From Octopus vulgaris (Eukaryota), in assembly GCA_951406725.2 (NCBI GenBank), contig OX597821.1, positions 56,420,001 to 56,484,000 on the forward strand: DNA of 64,000 bases. The letters are read 5' to 3'. Below are positions 4,290 to 57,112 of the stretch, one piece after another (the stretch's first letter is position 1; every line of letters begins with the position of its first letter). Both the position numbers and the translations under genes were made by a program. The notes beneath the pieces were generated by a model. The model did not search any database. It saw only the letters and a program-made list of their open reading frames with translations, and was not told where the DNA came from.

Positions 4290-4615
4290 TTAAAACATGT
4301 ACTGTGTCTATTAAATAATATTATGTGTGTGTGTATATATACATATATATTCACACAGACACAAATAATAAAAGCAGGGTTTCAGAAAACCATTTGCTAG
4401 AAAGAGGAGCTAACACTCCAAAACCACAAATTTTTCACTGTTAATAAATACGCACGGTGAAGGCAACGAATATAGCAAAATAGGGTTATCGTGTATAAAC
4501 TACAGAAGCAAGAAACAGATATCCAGGTATCAACTAATTTCACATTTTGTATCTTCGAACTCAAGGATCGTCAGCCAGGCTCACTGTATTCATTTATTTC
4601 TGAAAATATTCAACT

Positions 4616-4957
4616 CGTGATATATACTTGCCATTTAACTATGGCTAACCCCTAAGGGTGGATGCTGCTGTAGTTCGTAGTCCCAGGAGGACACCTCCTC
4701 CAGCTGGCTTTAGACACACTTTCTGTGCCCTATCAGTATTTGCAAAGGGAAGCCATCCTTCCCGTCTTCAACTTATGATACACACGGACTGAGTTTCTGG
4801 GTATTGACCCGTCAATACCCAGATACCCAGAGACGGATCAATACCCAGATACTCAGAAACTCGAGTCCGCTGGAGGAGGTGTCCTCCTGGGGCTACAAAC
4901 TACAGTAGCAGCCACCCTTAGGGGTTAGCCATATTTAAATGGCAAATATACATCACG
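4616..4957. mobile_element. Fold-back element with ~88-bp inverted arms and conserved hairpins
   Basis: 4616-4703 is the reverse complement of 4869-4957 with a few mismatches. Related to 50908-51141. Confidence 0.75.
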
Positions 4958-5099
4958 ATGTGTTGCAGCTACTGTTTATAACTCGCTCTAAGATTTAATA
5001 TTCAACTCGTTAGACGAGTATGAACATGACTGGTAAATTATCCTATGTCTATTTTATGTTCATGTCTCTGGGATCATGGGATACAATGGCTTTCAAAAA

Positions 5100-5460: not shown

Positions 5461-5483
5461 GTTTTAGGTACATGTAGCGTGAA

Positions 5484-5800
5484 AGCGGGAGAATTAGTGG
5501 TTAGGGTATTCGGCTCACGATTGTAAGATCGTGAGTTCGATTCCCAGTGGTGCTTTGTGTCATTAAGTAACAGACTTTATTTCACGTTGCCCCAGTCCAC
5601 TCAGCGGGCAAAAGGAATATTACCTATAATTCAAAGGGCCAGACTTGTTACATTTTGTGTCACGTGGAGACTCCCTGAGAATTACGTTAAGGGTACACGT
5701 GTCTGTAGAGTGTCAGTCTCTTGCACATTAATTTCAGGAGCAGGCTGTTCCACTGATCGGAACAACTAGAACCCTCGTCGTCGAAACCGACTGGGTACCA
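5484..5800 (+). mobile_element. tRNA-derived SINE, family C (near full length)
   Basis: A-box-like TTAGTGGTTAGG and B-box GAGTTCGATTCC (5533-5544). The 3' part recurs at 1240-1382 and, inverted, at 19806-19975. Confidence 0.75.
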
Positions 5801-9429: not shown

Positions 9430-12400
9430 CACTCAGAATAAACTTCCATATAGACAATATTTCGAGTTTTACCATTAAGGACGAATGTGAAAAGGTTTTT
9501 CTTACTTCCTACTCTAGAAATACCGACATATAGCTGTCCATGTGAAAAACAATCCTCTTCTAAATGCAAACCAGCTACTGATGTTGTAGCTAATTGACAG
9601 ATATTGCAAAAGACAAACGTTTGGAAAAAAATAAAATCGTTTGAACTCAAAGGGTATGTTGGAAGGTATTAAAGGAATTTGAGGGATAACATCATCTTCG
9701 CCTTTTCCACAGCCAGAAATTATTGTGGCCTCTAAAATATTGCTCATTAATTTCTTGACAACGAATCTTGTGCCATTGCATAACTTTAGTTGTGAGAGAT
9801 TGCCCAGAAGCATGACCGGAGCACCTACTTTCAATCGAAGACAATGACGAGGAGCACCTTTTAGCTCAAGGGAATTCAAAAATTCAACTGGATAATTGAC
9901 TAATTCTGATTCATCTAAGACAGAATCTATGGATTTATAATTATGCTCAATTGCTGGCAACATTTTCACAAGTCAACCAGTCAAACTATTCACTGCAATA
10001 TTTTTTGGTGCTATAATTGCCCTTTCATACAACCAAGCAGGATTTTTAATATTTAAATTAATTTGGGAAAAACCTTTTCAATTAGTTCTTCCACCGAGTT
10101 AAGCAAGGTGGATATTTCTGATAAATTTAATTCACCTTTTTCATTCATATTCAATCTTACTTCTCCAAGTTGCAATGGGGTATTAGCATATTAACCAATC
10201 AGAAGATTCCTATGTAAATGTGCCTTCATATTTGTAGAAAGTTTTAAACGTTGGGCATGCTTCCTCAGTACATAGGATTTCAAGCATGCTTTCATTTCAT
10301 CTGCCTTAGTTCACATGGGAATAATTGGCAATCACCTGAAAGCAATACAGTCACACCTCCCATCAAACAGTTTGAATTACGCAAATCCTGCAGCGTTCTA
10401 TTAACAGCTTCTAGAGCTTTGTTATGAGACATTGTAACTCTGTTCCTCACGATCAAAGAACATTTTTGTAGAGCTTCAGCAATACCAGAATGCTTACTTA
10501 TATTGCAAAAATGTTTTTCATATGTATTCAGATTAGATGGAAACTTGAATGATGCGTAAGCTATTCGACCTCCATCCAGGGAGTGAAGTTGCAGCAATTC
10601 CAGAACTCGCCACAGCTAAGGCTATTTCCTTTCACTGCCTAACTTTGGCCCGTAATAAATTTGTGTCAAAAGTTTTCCTAGTTCCTCCTGGTGCGTCTAA
10701 AAATATAATCCTCCTTTCTTATTGGTCACTTGTTCAACGACATGTATATGCCACTTGGTCTCGCAAAAGTTTCGGCACGTTTTCATTAGTGAATCTGGTC
10801 AGAGAATAGATATCATATAAAGTTTCTCGCAAAACATCTGAGTTATTCACTACAATTCGTTGAGTTTCAGGTAACCTAAATTTGCAGAGCTCCTCCCCTC
10901 CCATGGCGATCACGTGGTCTTCAAAAACAATCAACGCAGAGTTACATTTGTCTTCGCTAAATGCTATTTCTCTCCCAGGGAATCTTAGCTGTTGCTGATA
11001 TTTATAGTCCTCAGATAAATCATCCTTATATTTTTACCACAATATTAATGGATGACTTACTTCACAAGTTTTGAGAATTATTGCTAAAAGGACTCTTAGA
11101 GAAACAGGTGTGTGTGACATTGAAGTCTCAGCCATAGTTCTTTCCCAGTGATTGTCATCTAATAAATTTAAGGCCAAACAGGGTTCCCTGTAAGTGTCAA
11201 AAGTTTGCCTATCAATAGTTCTTAGAAAGCAAAATGAAGTCGGTCCTCTTATTTCATGAAGAAGGAGTCTCAAAAAGAAATATTTGCGGTGACTTGGATG
11301 CACAGAGTAAACTCTTCCTTTTATGAAGCCAAATTTTACACCTGGATGACCCTCAACATCAGTTTCTCGTTTTATCCTGTACCATGTGTTATTACTCCAT
11401 GTGTAATAAGATGGACCCTGATTATAGATAAGAGTTATTGCAAAATTATCTCGTTCACACAATTTTAGAAATGCAGTAAGAGTTGTGCATTTTGGATTTA
11501 GAGCGACTTGGGCAGCATTTTTGCTTGTGGAATAAACCCTCCGACCATTTTCAAGATGAACTGCAAGCAGTTGGATTGCAGGATGCCTTTCATGAACAGA
11601 AAACCCCAAAAGACGCCAAAGTGTTTCATTGGTGCCGATATATCTACCAAATTCATACTGGGTAACTTCATCTCTAACATTTTTTTCTTGTAAGGAAAAC
11701 ATGGCTGTTTTAGATCTCCTATTTATGTATTTGCAAACGTATGTAATAAATTTCACAGAATTGCAAAATTCAACATTTATGTGAGCATTGAATGTCTTTG
11801 AAAGCAAGGGAGAGTAAGGTACAATCCACCTGTTGTCAACCTCATGTCTGCCAACCATAGTTTCAAAGCCACCATCTTCAAGCAATCTTCTCCTATAAGA
11901 GGGATAACCATCCTCACTGAACTGAGTTTGAGGTAAAAAATTTTTAGGATATCGTTTTGTACATTGGCCATCAACTATGCTTGGTGATTTTCGATTGATA
12001 TCACCACACGGCCCATGCACCATGTGGCTCTTTACTATTTCAAATAAAGATGGATCAGTTTGTAGATCAGGTAACTCAGCTGATATAATAGAATCAATTT
12101 AATTGGAGTTGCTTTTTCTGGTAAGCCGCAGTAATATATGCGCATGAGGCAAGCCTCTCTTTCGCCACTCAATTGTGTGCATGTAGCACTGTAATAGACC
12201 AAAGATTTGTGATTTGTTTATCAAATCCATCAGTTTGATAATCTTCAAGCGAAACACTCTGGCCACTATATCTTGTTGATTGATGTATATTTACCCACTT
12301 TGTATTCGAAGTGAATGTGATAAAAAGGTATGGTTTTCCACAATTTTGAACATAAATTATTGCATCTTGGGTCTTTTCATTCATACATCGTGGACTACCT

Positions 12401-13835
12401 CTGAATGCATATCTGGCCTATGTCACTTCCTTGTCTATCGTTATATATATGATCTTTGAGATGTGTGTAGGAATCTACTCTTACTTCCTTTTGATGAGTT
12501 TTGACATAAAAGTTTTTCTGCTTCAACTTTTGCAAACATATCAACTTCAAATTGATGGAAGAGGTTTTGCCTTCTGTGAAGATGATTGAAGGAATTATCT
12601 CTCATCATAAAATGGTATGCATAAAAATCTATACATGAAACATGTTTTCTGGTATTATTTCCAAACTGTGGAATACCGAAATGATATCCATGATCACCAT
12701 ATACAAATAGTAGGGGATATTGATGGCTATCATAAGATCTGTGAGTTTCACATACACGTTTCAGTGTATTATCTTTTGAATGAAGAATTATGTCCCTATT
12801 GTCAAAACTTTCATCAGCCATAATAAGTGCGACTTAGTTACATGTTGGTAAATTGAATCGCATAACATGCTCATCGGATGGTCTTTTATCTGCATAAATA
12901 ACTACTCGAAATTCTGTTGATGAACTTTTCTCGATGGCTGCTTTAAAACTCCGTATGTATGCATTGTTTCCATGTAGCATTTCTTGTAGATTCCTGATTA
13001 TGATTCTACTTACACCTTGGTTAAGGTTGCACCTAACTTCTGTTTGATCTTCTTGTCCTCCAATGAAATATATTTGTAAGTATTAGGAATCTTCATGCTG
13101 TAATGGCAACAATCTTCCAATTCTATGATGAATTCGACCTTGAATTTTGAATGTAGACATAAACCCACTTTCGCTTACTATATTTGCACCAAAAGATGTC
13201 GTCATGAATGCATTATTGTAACGCTGTATGTTTTGAAAAAAGAAAGGGGGTTTGATTCTGGATTTGAGCCCAATGGGTGATCTTTTAATTGCTGTGGTGG
13301 ATCAGCAAGAACTGGTAATCGGATCTTTCCATTACTACAACACATACCTGGGGGTTCGTGAATCCATTTCTTGGCATCGCAGTCATCACATAGTAATGAC
13401 AGGGATCCTATAGTAACAGTGCCTTGCGAATTATATGCATAACTAGGATTATAATTGAATGCAGCCATTTTCCAATCTTCAGTAGTAAAAGGAGGCAGCC
13501 TAAATTATTGATGCCTTAATCTGTTTGTTATCCTCCTAGTGTTGAGCTCGTCCTGAGTTACAAGTTGCCTGGCTGCTGCAGTCCGTTGAGTATTCATTTT
13601 CACTCTCCTCCCATGTAATTCTGGAGTTTCAGGTTGTCCTGCTGCTGCATTTCGTTGGGAATTTAATCTTCGTCTTCTTTCTGCTTGTTCTTGACTTTGT
13701 AAGGCTCGTAGGCCTGCATGTATTTCAGTATCTATTCTCAGTCTCTTGGTCCGCTGAACGTCATTTTCTTCAGTTCTTTCTGTTTTCCTGCGCTGAGATT
13801 GCTTAGGTAGTCCGAATCTAATTTTTTGGAGGCAT
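9430..13835 (-). mobile_element. Decayed autonomous Helitron Rep/Helicase gene (frameshifted, with stops)
   Basis: Fragments in the expected order: Zn motif 'CDDCDAKKW..EPPGMCCSNGK' (13202..13468); 'ETHRSYDSHQYPLLF'; HUH motif 'IEWRKRGLPHAHILL' (~12130-12175); 'MVHGPCG' and Y2 motif 'YVCKYIN' (11034..12023); Walker A 'LDAPGGT' (~10670-10700); Pif1 motifs 'GGVTVLLSGD', 'LCNGTR' and '[11 protein letters not shown]'. Confidence 0.95.
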
Positions 13836-21814: not shown

Positions 21815-22205
21815 TATTCTTTTCTACTCTAGGCAATTTTGCGGGAGGGGGCCAGTCAATTAGATCGACCCCGTTACGCAACTGGTTATTAATTTATCGA
21901 CACTGAAATGATGAAAAGCAAAATCGATCTCGGCAGAATTTGAACTCAGAAGGTGCAGACAGACGAAATACCGATTTCTTTACTACCCACAAGGGGCTAA
22001 ACACAGAGGGGACAAACAAGGACAGACAAACGGATTAAGTCGATTACATCGACCCCTGTGCGTAACTGGTACTTATTTAAGCGACCCCGAAAGGATGAAA
22101 GGCAAAGTCGACCTCTGGGGAATTTGAACTCGGAACGTAACGGCAGACGAAATACCGCTAATCATTTCGCCCGGCGTGCTAACGTTTCTGCCAGCACGCC
22201 GCCTT
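21815..22205 (-). mobile_element. SINE family B, dimeric form
   Basis: Full unit with tail 1, then a headless second unit with tail 2. Same layout as 24054-24450. Confidence 0.85.
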
Positions 22206-22406
22206 ACTTCCGCTAAATATTAATAAAAATATATACATACTCATGTTTTGTGTTCTATTTTTCCTATTTGCGTCATCAGGCGTGGCTGTGTGGTAAGAAC
22301 TTGTTTCCAACCCTGGTTCAACCACATACTTATATATGAAGGTGTGTTTCTTCCACGCAGTTCGTCAATCCATAGAATAAGTAGCTAAACAAAACGTCTG
22401 TGTCTT

Positions 22407-39600: not shown

Positions 39601-40756
39601 TGGAAGGGACAGCTGGCCCCGGCGGGACTTCAACAAAGAACTTAAAGAATCGGAAAACATTTCTTGCGCTTTAAATATTTTGCCGTTTTAGCAAATGGTA
39701 TTTTTGTTAAAAAACTTTAGCATCCCTAAAACTTCATAATTTGATGAATAAAAACGAGGTAACTCCAGTAGGTTTTGAACGGAGGACATGGATAAGCGAT
39801 ACCTTTTATTCAAATACATCATTTATATACACAGAAGCAGAGTAACTGGTTTCGTTGAGACGTCATAGCCTACGTCATATTTGAGCAGCGCGTCAATGTA
39901 TATAAATTTACTCAAATACTGTTTTACAGACGCACGAACACACCTACACACATAACGCGCGTGCGTGTAGTAACACACGCACTTACACACGTACGTACAC
40001 ACACAATCACGTAATCAGTTGTGAAGATGATCTCTAAACTTTAATAGATCTAGGAAAAATGTTGTTCCGAAGATCATATTGCTCTAAGGCAACTATGTTT
40101 AAATTCGAACATAGTTGTTAAAATGAACTCTGACTGATACGCACCCGCATGCACAAACACACGCACACACACACACTCCTACACACACACACGTATAATG
40201 TTTGTAGGTGTCTTTAAATGCACATAGAAAGAAATTCTTTTAAATATGTTGCATTAAAGAAAAAAACATTCGAGTTTAAACTCTTCACCTTCTTTTGTTA
40301 AATCTATTTTTTAGGACAACAGCTTTCGTAAGTCAACTTACTTTAAATATATTCTCGACCTAACCTTCTAAATATATTATATATGTGTATGCGTTATGTG
40401 TGCTACTTTGTTTGTGCATATGTAAAAGAATATTCCGTTAACTGTATATACACTGCCGTGAGGTTTAATTATGACGTAAATTATGACGTTTCCACGGAGC
40501 CTATTCTGTTGTTTTTGCGTATGAATAAGGATGCATTTGCAGAAAATGTATCGTCAATTTGCGTTCTCGGTTCACAGACCTATCTGGAGATTACAGACTT
40601 TAACAAACACGAATGTCGTCATCTTTAACACGACCGTAAAGACGGTTCCACAGTACATGGAGAGTCAAAAATTTCTTAAGTGAGAAGCTCCAAACGATTT
40701 TGATAAGATGTTTGTGGATCATCTTTCGCGTTAGATGGAGAGAGAGAGAGAGTGAT

Positions 40757-40789
<33 letters not shown>

Positions 40790-40959
40790 GAGAGAGTGAT
40801 AGCGAGAGAGAGTGATAGAGAGAGAGAGAGAGAGTGATAGAGGGAGAGAGTGATAGAGAGAGAGAGAGTGATAGCGAGAGAGAGTGATAGAGAGAGAGAG
40901 AGATAGGCAGACAGACAAACAGACAGACAGAGACAGACAGACAGAGACTCACAAATAAA

Positions 40960-41250
40960 GGCTTGATGGAACAGGCAACCCAGCAACTTGTCGAAACCCA
41001 GAAGAAGTGAAGGAAATGCAGTAGACTGTGGAAACACCTTACGGGAAGCTGTTTCCGACATTACAAGGCAAACTCTCCAATGGATATTCCGAGGGAGAGT
41101 GAAGTGCAGCAGACCAAAAGCAATATCGAGAAGGTCCACAGAGACTGAAGCACTGCCAGGCGACTGCACGAGGAGAAAACTACAATCCATTACTGAAGAA
41201 CAAAGACAGATGAAAAGCTTTTCTATGCTCTAATTGGAGTCATGACAATA
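40960..41250 (+). mobile_element. RTE LINE 3' remnant (duplicated at ~44282-44570)
   Basis: 'GNTLR..DITRQTLQW.FRGRVKCSRPK..SRR' resembles the RTE C-terminal motif GH.LR...W...G.R.RGRP...W. Confidence 0.65.
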
Positions 41251-41500: not shown

Positions 41501-44072
41501 TGCTAGAATGGAACCGATATATCAATTCAATCTAGACTCTTACAAACGCTACACCTTTAAAAAAAAAATATGGATGTATGTATATCAAAAAGGATCAAAT
41601 AACATTCTCGGACCTTAAGCTAAAAAGGCCGGTCTTCCGGATGCTGTAGTGTATATATTTTCACTCTGCTATAAATGACACCGGTCCGTTGCAGAATTAT
41701 TCATTTTTACCGGTTGAGTGAACTGGTGCGACGTGATATGAAGTGTTTTGCGGAAGAACACTACGCATCCATGAATCAAAAGCATCATCCTACGACTATG
41801 ATAGGAATACAGTGCCAATTAACCCACGCACTTCCACATGTATGTATGTATCTGTGTATGTGTGTGTGTGCGTGAGTGTGTAAGTGTATATGCGTAGGTA
41901 TGCGCGTGTGCATGTGTGAGTGTGTGTTCGCGCGCGTGTGCGTATATATATATATATATATATATATATGAAGAAAGAGGTAGACAGAAAGGTGGAGAGA
42001 AATAGCGAAATATAACGAATGTGTGCATACACTCACACGCAATCAAACACATAGACACGCATTTTAGAAATAAATTATCTTTAGCAGTATACGACAAACA
42101 CATTATATAAAATACAGTACTCACAAGACACAATATGCAAATCAGCAATGAAATCGAAATTTCCCACTTTGAACATAACCCTTAATGTTGTAACATCACG
42201 TCAACATATGTTACATGGGTTACGTTTTTATATGTACTTGTATGCTATTATTTATCGATGAGATGTATGTGTAATGACGGTGCTAATATGCTAACGATGT
42301 ATTGTATCGATTTGATTTGACTCGAAAAAATACCTACTTTCTATCAAGTGATGGTGTAATCGATTGAGTGTTAGATTGTACGTTATGAGTATAATGCCGA
42401 TTAACTTTTTATCAAACATATAGACATGATGGGTGCTAAATGATACAAACAATACAATCTGATTTATTCTTCACTAATAAACTATATGAAATCTGTCCGA
42501 CACACTATAAATTATTCGAATATGTTCTTCTAACTCCTGAGTTCAAATCTCGTTAATTGGTCTCGTGATGAGCTAAGATTAGAGGTTTACAAAGCATAGT
42601 TTCCTGTACCGTTCCTTGGTTTTCAAACACTATAGGTGGCAATAATTTATTTTGTCATTCCTGACCGATATAAATCAACAACATATAAATGAAATAAAAA
42701 AAAGAGCACACACGATATTTATCGTAGTCGCAGTCGAGCTCGTATGTGACAAATACGCAATCGAAGCGTGATTTTCTTGATGATAACTGTCCCTAATTTA
42801 GACAAGAAGATAGCAATTTTGAGGGTGGAGGTTAGTCGATACCATCGATCTTGTTAGGCGATAACGTTTACGTTGGTACTTGATGGGTACCTTATTTTAT
42901 CGATTTCGGAAGTATGGAAGGGACAGCTGGCCCCGGCGGGACTTCAACAAAGAACTTAAAGAATCGGAAAACATTTCTTGCGCTTTAAATATTTTGCCGT
43001 TTTAGCAAATGGTATTTTTGTTAAAAAACTTTAGCATCCCTAAAACTTCATAATTTGATGAATAAAAACGAGGTAACTCCAGTAGGTTTTGAACGGAGGA
43101 CATGGATAAGCGATACCTTTTATTCAAATACATCATTTATATACACAGAAGCAGAGTAACTGGTTTCGTTGAGACGTCATAGCCTACGTCATATTTGAGC
43201 AGCGCGTCAATGTATATAAATTTACTCAAATACTGTTTTACAGACGCACGAACACACCTACACACATAACGCGCGTGCGTGTAGTAACACACGCACTTAC
43301 ACACGTACGTACACACACAATCACGTAATCAGTTGTGAAGATGATCTCTAAACTTTAATAGATCTAGGAAAAATGTTGTTCCGAAGATCATATTGCTCTA
43401 AGGCAACTATGTTTAAATTCGAACATAGTTGTTAAAATGAACTCTGACTGATACGCACCCGCATGCACAAACACACGCACACACACACACTCCTACACAC
43501 ACACACGTATAATGTTTGTAGGTGTCTTTAAATGCACATAGAAAGAAATTCTTTTAAATATGTTGCATTAAAGAAAAAAACATTCGAGTTTAAACTCTTC
43601 ACCTTCTTTTGTTAAATCTATTTTTTAGGACAACAGCTTTCGTAAGTCAACTTACTTTAAATATATTCTCGACCTAACCTTCTAAATATATTATATATGT
43701 GTATGCGTTATGTGTGCTACTTTGTTTGTGCATATGTAAAAGAATATTCCGTTAACTGTATATACACTGCCGTGAGGTTTAATTATGACGTAAATTATGA
43801 CGTTTCCACGGAGCCTATTCTGTTGTTTTTGCGTATGAATAAGGATGCATTTGCAGAAAATGTATCGTCAATTTGCGTTCTCGGTTCACAGACCTATCTG
43901 GAGATTACAGACTTTAACAAACACGAATGTCGTCATCTTTAACACGACCGTAAAGACGGTTCCACAGTACATGGAGAGTCAAAAATTTCTTAAGTGAGAA
44001 GCTCCAAACGATTTTGATAAGATGTTTGTGGATCATCTTTCGCGTTAGATGGAGAGAGAGAGAGAGAGTGAT

Positions 44073-44127
<55 letters not shown>

Positions 44128-44578
44128 TAGCGAGAGAGAGTGATAGAGAGAGAGAGAGAGTGATAGAGGGAGAGAGTGATAGAGAGAGAGAGTGATAGCG
44201 AGAGAGAGTGATAGAGAGAGAGAGAGAGGCAGACAGACAAACAGACAGACAGAGACAGACAGACAGAGACTCACAAATAAAGGCTTGATGGAACAGGCAA
44301 CCCAGCAACTTGTCGAAACCCAGAAGAAGTGAAGGAAATGCAGTAGACTGTGGAAACACCTTACGGGAAGCTGTTTCCGACATTACAAGGCAAACTCTCC
44401 AATGGATATTCCGAGGGAGAGTGAAGTGCAGCAGACCAAAAGCAATATCGAGAAGGTCCACAGAGACTGAAAGCACTGCCAGACGACTGCACGAGGAGAA
44501 AACTACAATCCATTACTGAAGAACAAAGACAGATGAAAAGCTTTTCTATACTCTAATTGGAGTCATGACAATAGTTGA

Positions 44579-50810: not shown

Positions 50811-50865
<55 letters not shown>

Positions 50866-50907
50866 CAATAATAATTCTCTAAAAGAGATATAGACAGTAA
50901 CTGCTCG

Positions 50908-51137
50908 ATAACATAAGGGACTAAAGCCATCTGAATATGGCTAGGGACAGGGCAGGGTGGTGGGGGTGTTACTGTTGCATTTAGCCCCAGTCGAACATCG
51001 ACGTCACCAGATAGGCCCGACACCGTCACGGTGTCCTTTAACCTGCAAAGGGAGGTAATTCCCCGATGAAGCGGAAACCACACACGGACCATGGTTTCAA
51101 GGTGTATTGCCTATTCAGATGGCTTTAGTCCCTTATG

Positions 51138-51141
<4 letters not shown>
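50908..51141. mobile_element. Element with perfect 30-bp inverted ends, related to 4616-4957
   Basis: ATAACATAAGGGACTAAAGCCATCTGAATA (50908-50937) has an exact inverse at 51112-51141; the element lies between (TA)n tracts. Confidence 0.8.
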
Positions 51142-51289: not shown

Positions 51290-52404
51290 TTATTATAACA
51301 AAAACATTTATCACTCAATATGATCGCCTTTTGAGAATACTGCTTTCACACGAGAAAGAATTTTTTTTACAGCTGCCACAACCCCCGCCTTTTTCATTTT
51401 GTGTTTCGCGCGCATGATGCTGGTTTTCAAACTGTTGAAACTCGAGTGTCGTGAAGCATTGGTCCTTCTTGAGAAGGTCGAGATCTGGAATGTTACTGGC
51501 CCAGATGTTGGCCCTCAAAAAATGACATTTTCTCACCAAAGAAGACCGGTATTGCTTCTGACCCATAGCATGGTGCAGAATCCTGGATGAGCCCCATGTT
51601 GTCAAGCCGAAACTCCTACTCCATCAAAGGTAGCAAAGAGTTCTTCAGGATGTTCAGATACTCCTTTGTACGGATTTTCAAGACAGACTCAATGAAGTGT
51701 GAATCTATAACACTTCCATCACTTAGCACCACTGCAAATACCATCACAGAGGTAGGATTCTTTGTCTCAAACACAGTTGGGCGGGATGCGATTCACGTTA
51801 GCGTCGACAGCAAACTTCTCGTTCACAAACACGTGAGTTTTTCTTGTACCTTGATGCTTGAAGAATGACGGAACTTTTGGGCATCTCTCAGCTCTGACTG
51901 CTTTGGCCTTGGCTGTGAAGAATTGACGGAGTCGTCGAATATAGCTAGTCATGCCAAGGTTCCTGTTCACAGCTCTGGATACCGTGGAAAGGGACACATT
52001 GCGTTTCTTTGCAAGAGTTGCCATGAGTGTAGATGGGTTGGTTCCAATCTTGTGTTTGAGGCCATCGAAAAACTTTGGAATGTGCTTGGAATCACTTCGA
52101 GTATTCTTTTGTATCAATCTTTCCCTCTTCTTTAAATTGTTTATATACACAATAAATTGTTGCTTTTGAAAGTTTCGTCGACTGAACAATTTTATTGGCA
52201 GCGTGCCCGGTGCGTGCCAAAGTAACAATGGCGGAATGATTCTGTTCTTCTATGACTTACTTTTGTCGAATGAATTCGCTATTTATCTAAAAGTTAAAGA
52301 AGGGGATTCGATTTTCAAGGAAGCAAAGTTTTGTGAAAAGATGAAATGTTAAATCCACTACGTCAACAACTTAAAATTGGTCTCAATTTATCAGCAAGAC
52401 CCTG
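51290..52404 (-). mobile_element. Decayed Tc1/mariner-superfamily transposase (maT/DD37D-like)
   Basis: HTH 'LAKKRNVSLSTVSRAV..LGMTSY', 'FVNEKF.VD', 'TKNPTSVMVF', 'QDSAPC' and 'IWASNIPDL'. TA-CAGGGT end at 52404. Confidence 0.8.
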
Positions 52405-54159
52405 TATAAATACATACATGTGTGTGTGTGAGTGTGTGTGTCTGTGTGTGTGTGTATGGTATCTTTTATAGGAATATTCATAGTTGAAATATAATCTGGT
52501 AGAGAAGCTTATACAATTGTATAAAATTCAATGTTCACTTGTTTGTATAATATTAATAAAAATATAGCCAGCTATTTGACTCGCCGGAGGTGGCCTTTCC
52601 ATCTATGACAGAATTGTTTTGCATTATATTATGAATTGAGTGGCGCGTTAATTGAAATATGAGCTGCATTTTAGGCTGGTAATGAGATTACCTTCTATCT
52701 TTGAATATTTTTGAACAATATACCTTCTATCAGATTGTTGTAAATAAAGCTTTCTATTTTTTGTATTGGAACGATTTGTATGTTTTCAGCCAGAAAGTTG
52801 TTGAATATTGGCTGCATTTTTCATGACAAATATTTTTAGCAACTAATTTTTTAGGGTTTTCATATAAATGTGTTCATATAATTTTGGTGTGTTTTCATAT
52901 AAATGAATCATTTATAATTATAACAGGTACAGTTCGCGCGTGCGCGTGTGTATCTGCGTCAGTGTGCACGCACGTATGCGTGTTGTGTTATGCCTGTACT
53001 GAATGCCTGACCGTGTTCGAGTTTAACGTCTTTTTATCATCTTCTAGTACGAGATTCTTGCTGCTCTTTTGATATCGTAAAGTTTCAGCATACACTAATC
53101 CGATATTATTTCTATTTATGATTTGCGTGTTAACGTTTCTGTGTTTATTATTTTATAATATTAATGTATTATGGCTATTGCTTTTATCATTGCTAATATT
53201 CTGTATGTTAAAGGGTCCTGTAGAGTATATCTGCACAACCAATATAGCAGTTGGAGTCTTGAAATTTACAACTTGCATGCTTGAATGATGTTTATAACTC
53301 ACATTGTGGATTATTGGCATGTTTTTTCCATGAGGAAAATGCTCGTTAAAAACAACCTTCATACATAGAGATAGATAGGTAGAGAAAAAGAGAGAGGGGA
53401 GAGAGAAAGGGAGGGAGAGAGAGAGGGGGGGGGAGAGAGAAAATAAAATAGATAAACCAAGTTAGGCTTCAAACATATTTACATGGAGCATAAAATGCGG
53501 TCTAAATAACAAAAAAAAAAAGACAGAAGAGGATTATGTAGTCTTATTTCGTCAGCTATTTCCAGTCTCACATATATCTATCTATCTGTTTATATCTATG
53601 TGTGTGACACATAGATATAAACAGATAGATAGCTATATGTATGCATACATACATATATACATACATACTTACTTGCATACATACATACATACATACATAC
53701 ACCCCAACAGTATCGGTAGCTCAACCTATACACCAACTCAATCATATATTTACAATCATTGGGAACTTAAATGAAACTCAAAAACAAAACATACTCTCAC
53801 GCACACACACACACACACACACAGATTTCGTTTTTGTATATAGATTGCAAGGCTCTTGATGTGAATGTTGAAATACATTTTATTGTGTTAGGAGAACCAC
53901 TACGTCAATAATAATAACAAACGCTCAGGTTCAATTCTACTTCATTATTACTAGTCAATCGACTAGGCATCTATCCAACTAATTAATCGATCATTTGTTT
54001 AACATGTTGGTTAAACAGTCAATCAGTTTGTTTGTCAAAGGTTTTCGTTGCCGCTTCAGAACTTTTCAGTGAATCGTGATCTCTTAACTTGCTTCCAAGG
54101 CTGCTTTCACCTGTCTGAGACCTAGTTCTATATCTGTGTGATTACGTATGGGCACTTAG

Positions 54160-54571
54160 ACAGCGAGCTGTCAGAAACGTTAGCACGCCGGGCGAAATGC
54201 GTTGCCGTATTTCGTCTGTCGTTACGTTCCGAGTTCAAATTCCGCCGAGGTTGACTTTGCCTTTCATCCTTTCGGGGTCGATAGATTAAGTACCAGTTAC
54301 GCACTGGGGTCGATGTAATCGACTTACTCTGTTTGTCTGTCCTTGTTTGTCCCCTCTGTGTTTAGCCCCTTGTGGGTAGTAATGATATAGTTATTTCATC
54401 TGTCGTTACGTTCTGAGTTCAAATTCCGCCGAGGTCGACTTTGCCTTTCATCCTTTCGGGGTCGATAAATTAAGTACCAGTTACGCACTGGGGTCGATGT
54501 AATCGACTTAATCTGTTTGTCTGTCCTTGTTTGTCCCCTCTGTGTTTAGCCCCTTGTTGGTAGTAAAGAAA
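54160..54571 (+). mobile_element. SINE family B, tandem dimer (both units with tail 1)
   Basis: 54208-54385 is repeated at 54391-54571. Confidence 0.85.
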
Positions 54572-55499: not shown

Positions 55500-57112
55500 T
55501 AGTTTTATTTTTTATAGCGTGCTTTCACTTCACTACCGAGCGCAGCTCTGTGTGCCTTGGGTATGTGCTGTGATTTGTTGTGATGCTCTGATGGTTATTG
55601 TATGGAAAGTGTTCTGCGTAGGATGTGTGCAGTGCCTAGTAGTGCAATTTTCTGTATGTTATATGTGTTTGTAAGTCCTGGTGTTTTTGTTAAGTATTTG
55701 TTTGAATATTTTTTATCATGCCTATGCACCTACTATGATAGGAATTGTTTCTGTTTTTAGATTCCACATTCTGGTTACCTCCATTTCCAGGTCTTTGTAT
55801 TTTGAAAGTTTCTCCATTTCTTTTAAAGGCACGTTGTCATCTGCCGGTATTGATACATCAATTAGAAAGCATTTTGTTTTCTTCATGATCTCTGACAACT
55901 CTATCTGGTCTGTTGGCCTTAATTTCTCTATCTGTGTGTATCGGCATATCCCAAAGTATGGTTGCTTTTTCGTTTTCTGTGACCTTTTCTGGTGTGTGCC
56001 TATACCATCTTTTTTCTGTTGTTATTCCATAATGTTGGCATAGCTTCCAGTATATGTAGGTTCCAACTCTGTCATGTCTGTGAATATATCCCTTCTTAGC
56101 CAGGACTGGGTAGCCAGAGATAATATGATTTATTGTTTCTTGTCCATCTCCACATATTCTGCAGTTACTTGTTATATTTCTTTTCATTACATGTTTTTGG
56201 TAATTTCTGGTGGGGAGGCTTTGGTGTTGTGCTGCAATAAAACTCCCTCTGTCTCTGCTTTGAGTCCTGAGCTTCTCAACCATTGCTGGGATTTTTCTTT
56301 GTCTATTTCTTTTGCATTTAGTTTAGTCCAGTATTTACCGTGAAGGGGTTTTTCTTGCCATCGTTTTATCATGGTTCTTTGATGTTCTAGTTTTAGTTTG
56401 GATTTCATTTGTTTTATAGCTTTTGTTGTTTCTTCTTCTTCTTCTTCTTCTTCTTCTTCTTCTTCTTCTTCTTCTTCTTCTTCTTCTTCTTCTTCTTTAT
56501 ATTTGTTAGGTGGTATGATTTCATGTTTGTATTTGTCAGCTTCCTTAAATACTGAGAACAGTTTTTTGTTTTGCTCGTGTTTTGCCGCTATTTGTATCAG
56601 TTTTCCTTCCTTCTGAAGTAGATATTTTTGCAGTCCTATGGTGGTTATTTTATAGTAGTTTTCCAGCTGTGTAAGGCCTCTACCACCATCTATACGTTGT
56701 ATATATAGTCTTTCTATGTCAGAGTTTGGGTGATGCATCCTAGACGCTGTCATTATTTTTCTTGTTTTCCTATCTATTTTGGTCAGTTCATCTAGTGTCC
56801 AGTTAAGGATATTGTAGCTGTAACTTATAACTGGGACAGCTAAAGTGTTAATACCTATTATCTTGTTTTTAGCATTGAGCTCTGTTTTTAGTATTGATCT
56901 AACTCGTCTATAATATTTTTTTATTATTTTCTCTTTCATTTGTGTGTGTTGTGTCTCATCTAGTTCATGGATTCCGAAGTATTTGTAAGTTTGGCTTTGG
57001 TCCAATTCTTTTATTTCATTGGTTTTATCTAGTGTGATGTTGCTACTCTTAACTAGTTTTCCTCTTTTCATGGTTACTTTGGCGCATTTTTCTAATCCAA
57101 ATTTCATATCTT
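55497..57112 (-). mobile_element. 5'-truncated R4/Dong-like non-LTR retrotransposon
   Basis: RT end 'MKFGLEKCA..YKYFGI', 'RLYIQRIDGGRGL', CCHC 'CRICG..ETINHIISG', 'RHD' and endonuclease 'ANRPD'. Flanked on both sides by (TAA)n. Confidence 0.92.

Follow-up and report, generated by a model that had tools for sequence, protein, structure and literature searches.

The window analysed here, 64,000 nucleotides of Octopus vulgaris DNA, holds two damaged copies of a mobile element, both with inverted ends. Copy 1 extends over 4615-4997 and is flanked by a 14-bp duplication (4605-4618 and 4997-5010), whilst copy 2 extends over 50864-51139 and is embedded in a (TA)n microsatellite run. An original prediction, made from the letters of the window, had described at these places two copies of one unclassified family sharing four ordered hairpins (H1 to H4), and had suggested an undescribed ribozyme or a replication signal of a non-coding element. 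The eight hairpins are indeed present with the sequences and coordinates given, and homology between the two cores was confirmed: their local alignment scores 77, whereas none of 500 dinucleotide shuffles exceeded 43.5. The proposed boundaries (4616-4957 and 50908-51141) were too short, and the copies are members of two subfamilies, A (copy 1) and B (copy 2), each with more than 1000 candidates in the genome. We identify both as dead, inverted, 5'-truncated non-LTR retrozyme insertions.

Copy 1 comprises two arms in opposite orientation. Arm 1 (4615-4814, minus strand) is in family-A RNA sense and runs from a truncated hammerhead to a short 3' end at +173 after the cut site, taking in H4, H3, H2, an extra hairpin (4648-4659) and H1. 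Its hammerhead remnant, recognised by sequence (4780-4814, minus strand), keeps U7-G8-A9, helix II, GAAAC, loop 3 with a 1-nt deletion, GUC and the 3' strand of helix I, with the GUC cut site between 4787 and 4786 on the minus strand; as the CCGA box and the 5' strand of helix I are absent, this hammerhead is predicted to be inactive. Next comes a scrambled junction (4815-4868, plus strand), made up by sequence of short repeated pieces of the hammerhead region, and then arm 2 (4869-4997, plus strand), which covers +83 to +212 in sense and terminates at the long 3' end. Arm 2 includes a Penelope-type tail (4958-4997, plus strand) and a covarying helix across the first start site (4902-4909 paired with 4968-4975, plus strand). 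The last four nucleotides of the left target-site duplication (4605-4618) also match the short 3' end of the element, a priming microhomology; the right duplication lies at 4997-5010.

Copy 2 likewise has two arms. Its arm 1 (50864-51114, minus strand), in family-B sense, runs from inside helix II of the hammerhead to the long 3' end (+222) and includes the tail (50864-50909, minus strand). The remnant, again recognised by sequence (51080-51114, minus strand), consists of helix II, GAAAC-CAUG-GUC and the 3' strand of helix I, with the cut site between 51087 and 51086 on the minus strand, and is predicted to be inactive because the CCGA(C/U)GA box is absent. Arm 2 (51112-51139, plus strand) covers only +149 to +176 in sense and terminates at the short 3' end. 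Since both window copies break off within the ribozyme, the hammerhead had been overlooked, and the earlier statement that the element did not fit a hammerhead holds for these two truncated copies but not for the family, whose full units do fit. Likewise, the linkers described as conserved are indeed so, but each belongs to a helix or to the hammerhead: ACACACGGAC corresponds to the cleavage site plus helix I read backwards, whereas TGCAAAGGGA and one arm of H4 (4736-4750, minus strand in copy 1) form one strand of a long rod and, in full units, pair with a segment upstream of the ribozyme that is missing from both window copies.

Other repeats occupy the window. On the minus strand lie a broken Helitron-like coding remnant (9517-12833), with a Pif1 2B domain match at 9517-9972 and neighbouring frames that are Helitron-like by eye only, a LINE 3' fragment with a weak zf-RVT match (55861-57110), and a 160-aa open frame (51770-52249) with a helix-turn-helix-like stretch, possibly a transposase remnant, that gave a sub-threshold Pfam match only. 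A tRNA-like SINE start was noted by eye at about 5470-5600, several dispersed SINE-sized repeats include inverted pairs (for example 21854-22233 and 54129-54508), and a local duplication, including a GA-rich repeat, links about 40695-41230 with 44017-44510, some 3.3 kb apart. A plus-strand hammerhead or SECIS element in copy 2, and MITE and Helentron readings, were weighed by eye and set aside once full units had been seen.

The two copies represent a repeat family of about 350 bases with thousands of copies in the genome. DNA searches of the 2.8-Gb genome returned 1208 candidates for copy 1 (94-96% identity for the best of 40 scored) and 1543 for copy 2 (99-100%, again with 40 scored), all copy numbers being lower bounds. 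A further clade, D, first found by nhmmer (E 3e-13), gave 2759 DNA candidates and is at least as numerous as A or B; its retrozymes are 362-365 nt long, have U3-A8 in the core and carry a loop of just two palindromic bases, AU, UA or GC (for example L165:937-1490). The flanks of copies contain head-to-tail units without an ORF. Natural monomers measure 352-365 nt (24 distinct), with a GC fraction of 0.40-0.47 in nine that were folded, and two inverted arrays of 9+3 and 6+2 near-identical units lie in TA runs (G000:C1:31008500-31014500 and 75378500-75383300). None of the sequencing runs containing the family is recorded as RNA. Families B and C are both represented in contigs from runs tentatively taken as RNA, and two of these contigs (391 and 390 nt) are each 30 nt longer than one unit, as expected of a circle and of a tandem array alike. 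In the run comparison, made at one family locus, loose ends and contigs of higher depth suggest that additional B-like subfamilies exist.

Non-LTR retrozymes are defined as such tandem units, and circles are known from those of coral, mussel and axolotl (Cervera and de la Pena 2020, PMC7229834). The octopus units are non-coding, tandem and within 150-450 bp, carry one hammerhead each, have GC below 50%, show no LTR arrangement in the insertions mapped and are flanked by target-site duplications longer than 4 bp. The octopus family therefore belongs to the non-LTR retrozymes, a known kind of parasitic retroelement, and neither an undescribed ribozyme nor an unclassified element is called for, the full unit being a type I hammerhead retrozyme. 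A match to an element already described had been set out in the original prediction as one outcome that would refute it; the match was found by descriptor and architecture, not in Rfam. Our search of largely open-access papers met no description of this family in octopus or cephalopods, or of inverted or tailed retrozymes; the family may already be catalogued in repeat databases.

Every full unit carries, on the minus strand of the window, helix I, a CYGANGA box, helix II, GAAAC, a four-base loop, GUC and the second strand of helix I. This motif is a type I hammerhead, predicted to be self-cutting. Genome-wide, the hammerhead pattern had 2371 matches against 0 for its reversed control, a second pattern 342 against 2, and the clade D pattern with the U3-A8 core 693 against 5. 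The consensus core (C3-U4-G5-A6-N7-G8-A9, G12-A13-A14-A15.1, U16.1-H17 and three helices) is present in C and older families; the deviations are U4C in the young families A and B, and U3-A8 in D. Positions 3 and 8 are paired in 140 of 144 distinct motifs (C3-G8 in 99, U3-A8 in 41, mismatched in 4), and the swap from C3-G8 to U3-A8 occurs in one clade. Loop 3, left unconstrained at selection, is palindromic in 29 of 30 loci, with five different palindromes, and helix I covaries in a tree-aware test (4/6 pairs at p<0.05). As in other type I hammerheads, compensatory change is seen in helices I and II, and a short helix III carries a palindromic loop. At the base of helix II, where the type I consensus has a G10.1-C11.1 pair, family C has G-C, clade D has A-U or G-U, family B has U-U, and A and older families have C-A. 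A short palindromic helix III, cleavage as a dimer and the U3-A8 variant have all been described (PMC4209133). Several points tell against a clear-cut call: U4C considerably lowers hammerhead activity in vitro (PMC3088659), the base of helix II is mismatched in the young families A and B, and only one of nine predicted Xenopus dimers was cleaved (Li et al., bioRxiv 2026.07.22.740005). In addition, Rfam returned no hammerhead, up to E 1 or E 10, for the window, seven loci or two 161-nt stretches with the intact motif, and otherwise gave miRNA-type noise on microsatellites and inversions.

What, then, are the hairpins? Folding of full monomers places them on a rod of about 50 bp that extends helix I and is topped by a junction carrying H3, H2 in the outer stem, and a sub-domain with H1. 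By pairing sequences from either side of the cut site, the rod makes a closed unit in every clade. Circular-fold z-scores were -5.1 to -7.7 in sense and -3.4 to -5.6 in antisense (five monomers, 40 shuffles each), revealing the stable self-paired monomer that marks a non-LTR retrozyme. The long rod was preferred over H4 in 20 of 23 full-context copies folded, and H4 is absent in clade D. In a 27-row alignment, 18 of 44 named pairs had changed on both sides, with a covariation score above all 500 shuffles, a control that ignores kinship. The tree-aware alignment comprised 41 rows, two of 43 being left out as chimeric or truncated. Here covariation was tested, as the original prediction had proposed: among all column pairs none was significant (best E 1.3), whereas among the proposed pairs 11/43 reached p<0.05 and two passed Bonferroni correction (one in helix I, one in H2), the proposed structure having been drawn from the same sequences and family B being poorly aligned at H3. 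By hairpin, p<0.05 was reached in 2/6 pairs of H2, 1/5 of H1, 0/6 of H3 and 0/4 of H4. Four co-varying hairpins was thus an overstatement: from the tree-aware and full-context results, covariation holds for H2 and conservation for H1 and H3, and H4 mostly represents an alternative fold. The H2 stem GTCGA/TCGAC of copy 2 had been read correctly, but it pairs perfectly only through a private mutation, T being found in 1/167 family-B matches and G in 166/167 (overlapping loci counted repeatedly); the homologous stem in family B is GGUGA/UCGCC.

One helix had not been seen at all. In it, the conserved ACAGUARC stretch pairs with the tail across the first start site. RNAalifold predicted this helix de novo, and 3/8 of its pairs are compensated, with 93% pairing over 18 rows; where alignments were mixed or shifting, the program also placed some helices out of register. 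The suspicion that minus-strand RNA is the functional one was borne out; the hammerhead lies on that strand, and G-U outnumbers A-C by 124 to 72. Family-wide folding and alignment also support the broader idea of a non-coding mobile element whose minus-strand RNA is selected for a multibranch fold. That H1-H4 constitute a new ribozyme class might be argued from this fold, the G-U bias and the empty Rfam result, but we consider it scarcely credible, given that cleavage is already supplied by the predicted hammerhead, that the conserved linkers are helix strands or hammerhead, and that clade D has not kept H4.

On the 3' side, insertions of the family end at two fixed sites separated by about 45 nt. 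In family B, 44 of 45 outer 3' ends map to +170-178 or +218-222, counted from the cut site; in A/C, 59 of 72 map to +164-176 or +212-225; and in clade D, 6 of 26 lie at +177-178 and 19 run past the reference end at +230. These frequencies are biased, as loci were picked by similarity to the queries. All 19 inverted family-B insertions with both ends in view have one short and one long end. Either arm may be the longer, arm length varies from 28 nt to 9 units, and an inverted arm is lacking in many copies. Opposite arms show 0.48 differences per 210 nt (58 pairs) compared to 4.76 between insertions (136 pairs), many pairs coming from two long arrays, and the difference is lower within than between insertions in 15 of 15. 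Judged by this near-identity, both arms of an inverted insertion come from one template. A 12-unit insert is uniform in both directions; such uniformity could also reflect gene conversion, smoothing during assembly or a source array that was itself uniform. Insertion targets are TA and AT-rich DNA, and duplications of 10-16 bp were found in 13 of 20 insertions tested, three of these inside TA runs, and none in five. The inverted ends of both window copies might suggest a MITE or another DNA transposon with long terminal inverted repeats, a possibility we regard as negligible and already refuted by the arm variation: arms are often missing, the ends are asymmetric, duplications vary in length, a strand-specific ribozyme motif is conserved, and the mapped insertions showed no fixed terminal inverted repeats with a fixed short target-site duplication.

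An inverted arm, a one-sided tail and TA preference are marks of Penelope-like elements (PLEs; PMC8557442, PMC3846280), and the octopus family combines an inverted arm, a one-sided tail and an AT-rich target with the presence of PLEs with intact ORFs in the genome, as expected of an element mobilised by a PLE. A PLE protein cuts and extends both strands, with starts at two positions inside the RNA that mark the limits of the tail; it assists its hammerhead, cleavage by which is dispensable for insertion in vitro, and the strands did not differ in start site (PMC11167929). The last two findings weigh against the main reading given below. From the ends, arm identity, duplications and Penelope marks, we infer that each insertion represents two priming events on one, probably circular, RNA.

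The genome contains intact 781-aa ORFs with RT, CX4CXXC and GIY-YIG at many loci, among the best 150 of 6136 GIY-YIG candidates scored; by the CX4CXXC linker in their predicted protein they are a Neptune-like PLE. Its copies contain minimal hammerheads of the U3-A8 type, sit at TA targets and have two kinds of 3' end separated by about 33 nt, and both inverted copies examined have one of each. The ORF had no match in a PDB sequence search. In the young Neptune-like family (for example G000:C5:1039500-1046500), the intact 781-aa RT-EN ORFs are preceded by a further ORF that overlaps them, reaches 479 aa and shows no clear Pfam assignment. A two-ORF layout is unusual for PLEs. A second PLE family, with about 46% identical protein, has two 3' ends and TA targets, with no hammerhead matched by the pattern used. 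A short ACAGYAGCA likeness and an end with a hairpin plus UUAUUAU are common to PLE and retrozyme and serve as leads only.

The PLE partner is putative: nhmmer found no homology between the retrozyme unit and the PLE pseudo-LTRs (15 loci), and just 6 of 174 retrozyme loci contain pieces of a PLE ORF. These results also bear on whether the units are mere pseudo-LTR fragments of an autonomous PLE yet to be found. All insertion signatures are PLE-type (PMC8557442, PMC3846280), truncated PLEs do leave solo hammerheads (PMC4209133), and the scoring of GIY-YIG candidates took in only the best fraction given above. Against this, the units re-enter themselves head to tail with no ORF, in none of those six loci that have a mapped insertion does the PLE ORF adjoin it, and the PLE pseudo-LTRs examined are unrelated in sequence, making such an origin very improbable.

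Our main reading, to which we give a probability of roughly 80%, is that the two stretches are dead, inverted insertions of a non-LTR retrozyme family that is likely transcribed, likely cleaves itself in pairs and is circularised, and is likely inserted into AT-rich DNA as copies made by a reverse transcriptase of Penelope type. Array transcripts would, quite likely, be cut at GUC as dimeric hammerheads whose palindromic loops pair into an extended helix III, and the monomers would probably be ligated into circles. More likely than not, a Neptune-like protein would then nick the two strands of AT-rich DNA at points about 12-14 bp from each other; the 3' ends would prime on the same RNA (at about +174-178 and +217-236 after the cut site), and the cDNAs could circle repeatedly and would be joined into an inverted, tailed insert. 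Whether the conserved fold, that is the rod, the junction with H3 and H2, and the sub-domain closed by the start-site helix, would act as a binding platform for the enzyme seems to us an even bet. This putative role for the hairpin domain is close to the replication signal offered as an alternative in the original prediction. More tentatively still, retrozymes may be circular RNA mimics of the Penelope start signal, undergoing twin-primed bidirectional rolling circle at two structurally fixed sites, with the junction as a putative platform for the PLE reverse transcriptase, kept by structure without sequence homology to the partner.

The hammerhead might instead be weak or vestigial in the young U4C families, with Penelope-type mobilisation proceeding via linear multimeric transcripts and circles not serving as template. 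This alternative draws on U4C and the non-Watson-Crick helix II base in the youngest families, on PLE insertion in vitro without need of the hammerhead (PMC11167929) and on the existence of source arrays of up to 12 uniform units. However, compensatory changes have preserved the core, helix I and palindromic loops time and again, the swap of C3-G8 for U3-A8 among them, the rod makes a closed unit across the cut site in every clade, and circles accumulate from mussel, coral and axolotl retrozymes (PMC7229834). We therefore consider linear templates unlikely, though the least so of the alternatives, and retain the circular template as the preferred reading.

To compare with known systems, the octopus family resembles metazoan non-LTR retrozymes, whose units measure 350-390 bp in mussel and 330/350 bp in axolotl, in its short non-coding tandem units, low GC, long target-site duplications and co-occurrence with PLEs, and likewise in its type I hammerhead, two-pair helix III with tetraloop and highly self-paired predicted circle (PMC7229834). 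Unlike them, young octopus families have U4C, and one clade has a U3-A8 core with a two-base loop 3. Octopus insertions are often inverted with two fixed ends, a feature absent from the retrozyme descriptions compared, and the octopus family is described here from sequence. According to a 2020 review, animal retrozymes lack any conserved motif that would point to the element mobilising them (PMC7761336). Xenopus retrozymes have likewise been proposed as non-autonomous PLE passengers (Li, Clavereau and Pollet, bioRxiv 10.64898/2026.07.22.740005); there the link is homology to pseudo-LTR sequence, whereas in octopus it is the insertion signature, no such homology having been found in 15 PLE loci.

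The insertions also resemble those of the EN+ PLEs Neptune and Nematis (PMC8557442, PMC3846280, PMC4209133) and of Poseidon PAc (PMC11167929) in their partial tandems, inverted 5'-truncated arm and tail at one end, and further in AT/TA targets and a hammerhead upstream of two internal start sites. Unlike EN+ PLEs, octopus units have no ORF and are only about 350 nt long, with a tail of 44-58 nt compared to 30-40 nt in PLEs. The kind of element is thus known, and what is added is a signature of two sites on one template, together with a helix across the first start site. If retrozymes do mimic the Penelope start signal, their subfamilies would amount to a mutational scan, made by nature, of the PLE initiation element, which has yet to be defined. 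As the genome also holds intact PLE ORFs, the choice of internal start sites by PLEs and the use of retrozyme circles as templates become testable on a 350-nt RNA. The ends of octopus retrozymes carry the two-site signature of Penelope, in which an inverted insertion uses each site exactly once, and the strands of a covarying helix lie on either side of one site.
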